Position numbers and translations under genes: made by a program. From assembly GCF_030013205.1 (NCBI RefSeq), contig NZ_CP122648.1: DNA of 64,000 bases, one strand, 5' to 3'. Numbering within the stretch: position 1 is the stretch's first letter; each line of letters begins with the position of its first letter. The notes under the pieces were generated by a model, which saw only the letters and a program-made list of their open reading frames with translations, was not told the origin of the DNA and made no database searches. Source of the DNA: Escherichia coli (lineage in GTDB: Bacteria; Pseudomonadota; Gammaproteobacteria; Enterobacterales; Enterobacteriaceae). This document shows positions 12,150-12,206 of this stretch, piece by piece.

Positions 12150-12206
12150 CAACAACCCATGTAGATTACCTTTTGGCGGCATCAGTTTCATTGCTGGCTG
12201 ATGTCC
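12150..12206 (+). ncRNA. dicF: DicF-like small RNA with intrinsic terminator
   Basis: TTTTGGCGGCATCAGTTT...CTGATGTCCGCCCTTTTT resembles the K-12 DicF 3' stem-loop as I recall it; sits between ydfC and dicB. Confidence 0.5.

Follow-up and report, generated by a model that had tools for sequence, protein, structure and literature searches.

The window, that is, the whole 64,000-nt stretch of DNA analyzed here, carries a rare version of the prophage sRNA DicF with both target-recognition segments replaced, one that probably no longer silences the cell-division gene ftsZ and has other targets. DicF is the textbook example of a division-blocking prophage sRNA, and similarity often earns its homologues the label "DicF, inhibits ftsZ". 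At this locus homology does not carry over function, because both experimentally defined pairing regions have been exchanged. The element is homologous to DicF in scaffold and position, and its modules reassort among related loci; the loss of the known pairings is predicted. The K-12 occupants of this early-left operon position are DicF (in Qin) or KilS (in Rac), and we judge it fairly likely that the window allele represents a third specificity class of the sRNA gene at this fixed (dicB/kilR) operon position in Qin/Rac-like lambdoid prophages. The best reading of the analysis is that the element would act as an operon-processed, Hfq-type sRNA with a different target set; the two K-12 alleles are experimentally verified Hfq-associated sRNAs (DicF, PMC5069750; KilS, PMC8175672).

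An inspection of the surrounding genes reveals that the dicF homologue occupies the position of K-12 dicF in the dicA-controlled dicB operon, in a prophage that adjoins ompW. The dicA repressor gene (10203..10610, +; RefSeq annotation) marks the operon-controlling immunity region, and dicC (9889-10119, −) diverges from it. Upstream in the operon are a ydfA-like gene (10777-10932, +), ydfB (10934-11062, +) and a 186-aa ORF in place of ydfC (11074-11634, +), and the gene for the small division-inhibitor protein, dicB, is located at 12399..12596 (+; RefSeq WP_000449165.1 in UMNF18 and ORF translation). Over 321 nt (12100-12420) the window matches porcine ETEC genomes at 100% identity, among them UMNF18, in which the RefSeq order is dicC (−), dicA, a DUF1391 (ydfA) gene, ydfB, the 186-aa hypothetical gene and, antisense, another hypothetical gene, a gap without annotation in which the element lies, dicB, a DUF1482 (ydfD-like) gene, exonuclease, excisionase, integrase and ompW. 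Positions 9626-11060 are 96.8% identical to K-12 Qin and positions 11891-13642 align to it at 76%; the region between them (11061-11890) is unrelated to K-12 Qin because ydfC has been replaced. Like DicF, the element is therefore flanked by the ydfA/B(/C) genes and dicB within the dicB operon that DicA represses, and the conserved gene order and the identity to Qin make it the positional counterpart of dicF in a Qin-like prophage integrated next to ompW. The missing ncRNA annotation is uninformative, because canonical dicF also lacks a RefSeq annotation in other strains.

Several other features were observed in the window. An insertion without similarity to K-12 Qin (11061-11998) holds the 186-aa ORF and the antisense hypothetical gene (11591-11998, −; WP_236505374.1). 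The prophage arm contains an isrK-like sub-threshold match (4871-4952, −; 30.5 bits), a full match to the sok antitoxin RNA of a hok/sok-type module (6220-6387, −; 109 bits) and a SIR2-family protein gene at approximately 6590-7549 (−), as annotated by RefSeq in UMNF18, which could be a defence gene. Elsewhere, STnc490 is present in two identical copies separated by 23 kb (37359-37482, − and 60412-60535, −), and there are two rdlD antitoxin RNAs of ldr/rdl repeats (58983-59048 and 59518-59583, −) and a tyrT/tyrV-type tRNA-RtT-tRNA array that includes two RtT elements (42291-42850, +).

The sequence-only reading had placed the element at 12150-12206, which clips the 3′ arm; the Rfam DicF match, the alignments and the fold place this DicF/KilS-family allele at approximately 12160..12215 (+). 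The plus-strand letters of 12150-12219 are CAACAACCCATGTAGATTACCTTTTGGCGGCATCAGTTTCATTGCTGGCTGATGTCCGCCCTTTTTAAAG. RNase E has the consensus RN|WUU, which AG|AUU at 12163-12167 fits; the 5′ end is uncertain by approximately 5 nt, and cleavage at this site would put it at 12165. In the MFE fold, a 15-nt single-stranded 5′ tail, UGUAGAUUACCUUUU (12160..12174, +), precedes a terminator hairpin (12175..12209, +) in which 12175-12187 pairs with 12196-12209 over 13 bp with one bulge at 12204. The apical loop (12188..12195, +) lies inside the module GUUUCAUUGCUGG, and the U-run of the Rho-independent terminator (12211..12215, +), a match in the terminator scan, is the presumed Hfq 3′ binding site. 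The fold has an energy of −21.0 kcal/mol, compared with −15.9 kcal/mol for K-12 DicF, and the hairpin (−20.2 kcal/mol) ties for the most stable among the 49 unique alleles described below. The fold and the terminator scan thus display the DicF architecture of a single-stranded 5′ part, a terminator hairpin with a GGCGG/CCGCC base, which the window allele and DicF have in common, and a U-run. Candidate prerequisites for processing and Hfq binding can be read from the letters, namely the U-run, U-rich sequence preceding the hairpin, the RN|WUU-like site and a 21-bp stem.

This stem (12218-12238 / 12363-12383) closes the structured spacer between the sRNA and dicB (12218..12383, +; fold z = −5.1). 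The stem is kept in Qin and Rac with changes that are G-U compatible, and it is presumed to be an RNase III site that would give a longer sRNA form, as in K-12. On the other side, the Qin-type upstream flank (12087..12152, +) is part of the operon transcript that would be cut to yield the sRNA, and no sigma-70 promoter of its own was found just upstream of the sRNA in a search of the plus strand over 11538-13000. A small ORF through the sRNA was considered and rejected: the window allele reads ATG TAG, an early TGA interrupts another allele, tails A and B (the tail types are defined below) have no ATG, and there is no Shine-Dalgarno sequence. In the alleles that read ATG TTG, an ORF of 26-28 codons spans the sRNA (window 12159-12246, +, with the TGA at approximately 12244-12246), which is probably not coding because a Shine-Dalgarno sequence is absent. 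The spacer itself gives a sub-threshold match to Rfam STnc100 (RF02076; 12222-12376, +; 33.7 bits, with a gathering score of 47). Similar matches of 32-44 bits are found at L014 6906-7095, L022 5351-5570, L054 1646-1800 and L078 1376-1581, and such matches sit directly 3′ of every sRNA at the dicF/kilS position, over the dicB/kilR spacer. STnc100, together with PasD according to the 2026 Storz preprint, may be related to this spacer.

The Rfam DicF model (RF00039) matches 12160-12210 over its full length (model 1-52/52) at 32.5 bits under permissive filters; E is 3.7e-5 when 701 nt are searched and 0.0034 over the whole window, in which it is the sole copy. The sequence-only reading had held that failure against this model would count against a DicF-like sRNA, and the gathering score (48 bits) is reached nowhere in the window; however, the full-length sub-threshold match and the synteny (dicC/dicA/ydfA/ydfB ... 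dicB/ydfD) establish the homology that it had proposed. The K-12 sequence that it gave was also correct, in that dicF (NC_000913 1649382-1649434) begins with TTTCTGGTGACGTTTGGCGG, whereas the window has GATTACCTTTTGGCGG at 12164-12179.

Pairwise alignment with K-12 locates the differences. The upstream flank is 82% identical to K-12 Qin, the stem base GGCGG and the 3′ base plus U-run are 100% identical and the distal spacer is 98% identical, whereas identity falls to 34% in the 5′ tail (11/32 columns) and to 67% in the upper stem plus loop (18/27 columns, two indels). The proposed divergence of the 5′ segment is therefore real: the tail is approximately 10 nt shorter than in K-12, and the xylR-pairing seed UUUCUGGUGACGUUU is replaced by UGUAGAUUACCUUUU. 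The accompanying view that the stem-loop matches DicF holds for the GGCGG/CCGCC base and the U-run and not for the upper stem and loop, in which K-12 UUUUACUCCGUGACUGCUCUG is replaced by UUUCAUUGCUGGCUGAUGU and, across the stem-loop, UAUCAGUUUUACUCCGUGACUGCUCUG by CAUCAGUUUCAUUGCUGGCUGAUGU. The ACUCCG anti-SD region of K-12, which pairs with ftsZ and pykA, is absent, and the module GUUUCAUUGCUGG stands in its place. This replacement of the loop and 3′ arm matters because published genetics map the pairing with the ftsZ RBS and with pykA to this 3′ part, while the 5′ end of DicF pairs with xylR only (Balasubramanian et al. 2016, PMC5069750).

A second K-12 sRNA proved to be a relative. One allele of the family (tail B with loop 2, B+2) maps to K-12 1418410-1418477 in the Rac prophage, which is the annotated sRNA KilS (b4833, NC_000913 1418405-1418502, equivalent to L129 6406-6503, −), directly upstream of kilR. 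KilS was found by RIL-seq on Hfq and verified by northern blotting, and has its own transcription start and the partner yncL (Bar et al. 2021, PMC8175672); that paper contains no mention of DicF. In a three-way alignment, Qin dicF, Rac kilS and the window allele share the hairpin base, the U-run, the 21-bp stem and most of the spacer. The window allele has an upper stem (GGCGGCAUCAG/CUGAUGUCCGCC; CAUCAG/CUGAUG) identical to that of KilS, a Qin-like upstream flank, and a tail and loop that match neither.

An exact-match scan of IMG/VR with the conserved 3′ flank CCTTTTTAAAGTGAATTTTGTGATG returned at least 120 loci, of which the first 120, a non-random sample, were compared; with the window, these 121 loci contain 49 unique sequences at the sRNA position. 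All 49 keep the terminal hairpin and C(C)UUUUU, with an identical U-run throughout, and one shows a double compensatory change, GGUGG/CCACC (C-G to U-A). The tails fall into types A (K-12), A′, B (GUGUGUAGUC), C (AUGU[A/U]GAUUACCU, the window type) and several D forms, and the upper stem/loop into types 1 (K-12, with ACUCCG), 2 (UUUUUUCUUGAAGUUCG), 3 (UUU[C/A/U]AUUGCUGG, the window type), 4, 5 and 6, so that the window allele is designated tail C + loop 3. Among the 121 listed loci, A+1 occurs at 49, B+2 at 42, B+1 at 11, A+4 and A′+6 at 4 each, C+3 (the window, L047 and L108), C+5 and D+3 at 3 each, B+3 at one and another combination at one. Three tails (B, C and D) thus carry loop 3; tail C is combined with loop 3 or loop 5, and in L054, L057 and L083 it has a loop other than that of the window; and loop 1 is found with tails A and B. 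These combinations indicate that tails and loops reassort; the gene 3′ of the spacer, DicB-like or KilR-like, also reassorts. Only loop-1 alleles pass the Rfam DicF threshold (B+1, 60.9 bits), with 43.5 bits for A+4, 39.1 for B+2 (the KilS type), 37.9 for D+3 and 32.5 for the window, and the model gives no match on the C+5 and A′+6 alleles. The wider DicF/KilS family proposed here is accordingly characterized by a variable tail and loop on a conserved terminator scaffold, as seen across the 121 listed loci, and by CCUUUUUAAAGUGAAUUUUGUGAUG, a structured spacer and then dicB or kilR, as seen in these loci and in the three-way alignment.

The effect of these replacements on target pairing was assessed with ViennaRNA by a windowed duplex scan with an opening-energy correction, an approximation of IntaRNA. 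As controls, K-12 DicF recovered the published sites on xylR (+11..+20 with DicF nt 4-14, −11.6 kcal/mol), pykA (−19..0 with nt 25-43, −11.7 kcal/mol) and manX (+33..+52 with nt 35-54, −12.3 kcal/mol), each within the best 1-5% of 119-177 background windows. The ftsZ site (−28..−7 with nt 31-53) was also recovered and has a hybrid energy of −22.7, a total of −7.9 and a background fraction of 0.15; because this genuine site scores only moderately, weak real interactions could be missed by the scan. The window allele scores −3.0 for ftsZ, −3.2 for xylR (at an unrelated site), −4.2 for pykA and −5.3 for manX, against its own background values of −3.3 at the median and −6.1 at the 5% tail. In particular, its 5′ seed lacks the complementarity to xylR codons 4-7 (−3.2 versus −11.6 for K-12), and the scores of its 3′ region on the ftsZ RBS, pykA and manX are at background. 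On these background-level scores, none of the validated DicF targets is predicted to be under the control of the window allele. The suggestion that target pairing could differ is thus supported, although its cause was misplaced: the 5′ end, to which the change had been attributed, accounts for xylR only, and the altered pairing with ftsZ and pykA lies in the 3′ part, which had been taken as conserved and is also replaced.

The element is very unlikely to be functionally an ordinary DicF, one in which imperfect or alternative pairing keeps ftsZ, and perhaps further DicF targets, repressed. The locus, the scaffold and the operon partner dicB are unchanged, and GUUUCAUUG has a complementarity of 9-10 bp with ftsZ codons 4-7 (hybrid energy −10.4); however, this site retains only −0.7 to −3.0 once corrected for accessibility, which is the background median, and the validated ftsZ site (DicF nt 31-53, including ACUCCG) has been replaced. 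In a coarser run over 23 start regions (division genes and known targets: the dcw cluster, minCDE, xylR, pykA and manX), ftsZ ranks 18/23 for the window allele, with a background fraction of 0.62. Convergent targeting of ftsZ by different modules was also rejected when 8 representative alleles were compared over these regions: only alleles with K-12 modules match the known sites, and the other non-canonical alleles lack convergent ftsZ pairing as well.

No convincing target for the window allele was found among approximately 80 transcription-start regions and random windows. A KilS-like function was rejected, since pairing of the window allele with yncL does not exceed background, whereas tail B of KilS is predicted in the same scan to pair with yncL with a hybrid energy of −18.2. 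A cis or self target, as for the P4 CI and P1 c4 RNAs, was likewise rejected: reverse complements of the tail and loop are no commoner in the 64-kb window than in shuffles, and the cis-target search covered the left 16.7 kb of the prophage, the part inside the window. The one 10-nt match in that search is a small hairpin with a GNRA loop, TGCCAGCAATGGCA (12817-12830, +), which is located 45 nt upstream of an 800-aa exonuclease ORF and has 10 nt complementary to window loop 3. This hairpin is present approximately 600 nt 3′ of the sRNA in 70/113 loci whatever the loop type, and it therefore does not co-vary with loop 3.

The scan, which found no convincing target pairing, is also consistent with the element serving the operon in cis only, as a terminator or attenuator and a site of RNase processing that sets dicB read-through and has no trans function. 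What is invariant in the 49 alleles is the GC-rich stem base, the U-run and the flanking 21-bp stem; all of this is what such a cis function would require, and the variable parts could therefore be unconstrained. However, the variable parts are functional or candidate seeds in DicF (PMC5069750) and KilS (the predicted pairing of tail B with yncL), and the variation is discrete, consisting of a few internally conserved, reassorting modules rather than a continuum of decay. Additionally, the loop-3 core AUUGCUGG is retained across several tails, being kept in 7 unique alleles with at least 4 different tails. A purely cis-acting role, the main rival reading, is therefore considered unlikely, and an sRNA with other targets is the preferred reading.

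The frequency of the alleles was determined by searches of 5,426 complete E. coli genomes. The 321-nt locus query matched 10,444 places in 4,629 genomes, the canonical dicF query (68 nt) 6,698 places in 3,972 genomes and the KilS-type query (68 nt) 1,431 places in 1,428 genomes, whereas the window-allele query (66 nt) matched 114 places, in 83 genomes at ≥80% coverage and in 91 with any match. The three allele-specific queries cover approximately 8,200 of the 10,444 locus copies, and since canonical dicF accounts for 6,698, at least a third of the copies are non-canonical and fall below the Rfam threshold. At ≥99% identity the window allele is found in 26 records, mostly from swine ETEC, poultry and cattle isolates, and at ≥95% identity in approximately 80 genomes, with swine, poultry, cattle, mouse and human as sources.

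The rarity of the allele (83/5,426 genomes, 1.5%), its score below the Rfam threshold and the replacement of the upstream ydfC could be expected of a decaying dicF remnant in a cryptic prophage. However, the hairpin is perfect and stabler than that of K-12 DicF, the flanks and dicB are intact, and many unrelated strains, as well as IMG/VR viral contigs, carry the allele in almost identical form, which makes such a remnant very improbable. None of the sequenced phage genomes carries the window allele. The dicF-dicB locus is nevertheless present in sequenced, apparently complete phages such as mEp460, the PPompW phages and Tritos, the last with the canonical allele (OV696610.1 29634-29686, equivalent to L131 368-420), and these phage-borne loci make the 2016 statement that no phage genome has DicF or DicB out of date. 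UMNF18 contains five copies of the 321-nt locus, and a Qin-like prophage with a dicF >99% identical to K-12 has been reported in it (PMC5069750); because this strain carries both, canonical DicF and the window allele coexist in at least that strain.

In light of the processing precedents of DicF and KilS (PMC9438474, PMC8175672), a sequence of events can be proposed for the window allele. When DicA repression is lifted, the operon transcript would end at the hairpin or read through it. RNase E would trim the 5′ side and RNase III would cut the 21-bp stem of the read-through RNA, which would release an RNA of 51-56 nt (or approximately 70 nt) that may bind Hfq through its U-tail. This RNA would pair via AUUACCUUUU and/or UUUCAUUGCUGG with mRNAs other than ftsZ, xylR, pykA, manX and yncL, and division inhibition at the locus would be left to the co-transcribed DicB protein. 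A broader proposal, plausible but held tentatively, is that DicF and KilS represent alternative settings of a single two-module seed cassette that recombines and that Qin/Rac-like prophages carry upstream of their division-inhibitor gene, with the window (AUUACCUUUU, UUUCAUUGCUGG) as a further setting that acts on other mRNAs and not on ftsZ. If so, the window setting would direct the same scaffold to different host or phage mRNAs, and the prophages in one cell, such as the five loci of UMNF18, would deploy a panel of non-redundant regulators. Considered as one modular family, the DicF, KilS and window-type alleles offer a natural experiment in how horizontally transferred sRNAs gain new targets, and also a ready-made collection of chimeras.

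In 1994 Faubladier and Bouche reportedly described diverged prophage sequences that resemble dicF. EHEC is known to have four dicF copies, and the 2016 survey took in only copies >99% identical (PMC5069750). No description of the window-allele sequence, of the modular reassortment or of the DicF-KilS homology was found in the searchable literature (Faubladier & Bouche 1994, Melson & Kendall 2019 and Murashko & Lin-Chao 2017 lay outside the search).

Among the nearest known systems, DicF (RF00039; K-12 Qin, b1574) has the same position between ydfAB(C) and dicB in a DicA-repressed operon, the same GGCGG/CCGCC base, U-run and upstream flank, and the same downstream RNase III-type stem. The window allele differs in its extended perfect upper stem, its shorter tail (by approximately 10 nt) and its Rfam score below the gathering score (32.5 versus 48 bits), and in that both the tail with the xylR seed and the loop and 3′ arm that pair with ftsZ, pykA and manX are replaced. 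KilS likewise has a homologous position and scaffold, an upper stem, terminator and downstream spacer identical to those of the window, and a small division-inhibitor gene next downstream; however, it has the tail GCUGUGUGUAGUCC and the loop UUUUUUUCUUGAAGUUCGG, neither of which is present in the window allele, it precedes kilR rather than dicB, it is a 98-nt RNA with another upstream flank and its own transcription start, and its RIL-seq partner yncL has no complementarity to the window allele beyond background. PasA/PasC and PasD/STnc100 are also prophage-borne Hfq sRNAs with several variants and copies per genome, conserved terminators, diverged 5′ parts and repeated horizontal acquisition (Zhu, Shabalina & Storz 2026 preprint, in which DicF and KilS are not treated), but they are unrelated in sequence and are located in the late (Q/holin) region rather than in the early-left operon.
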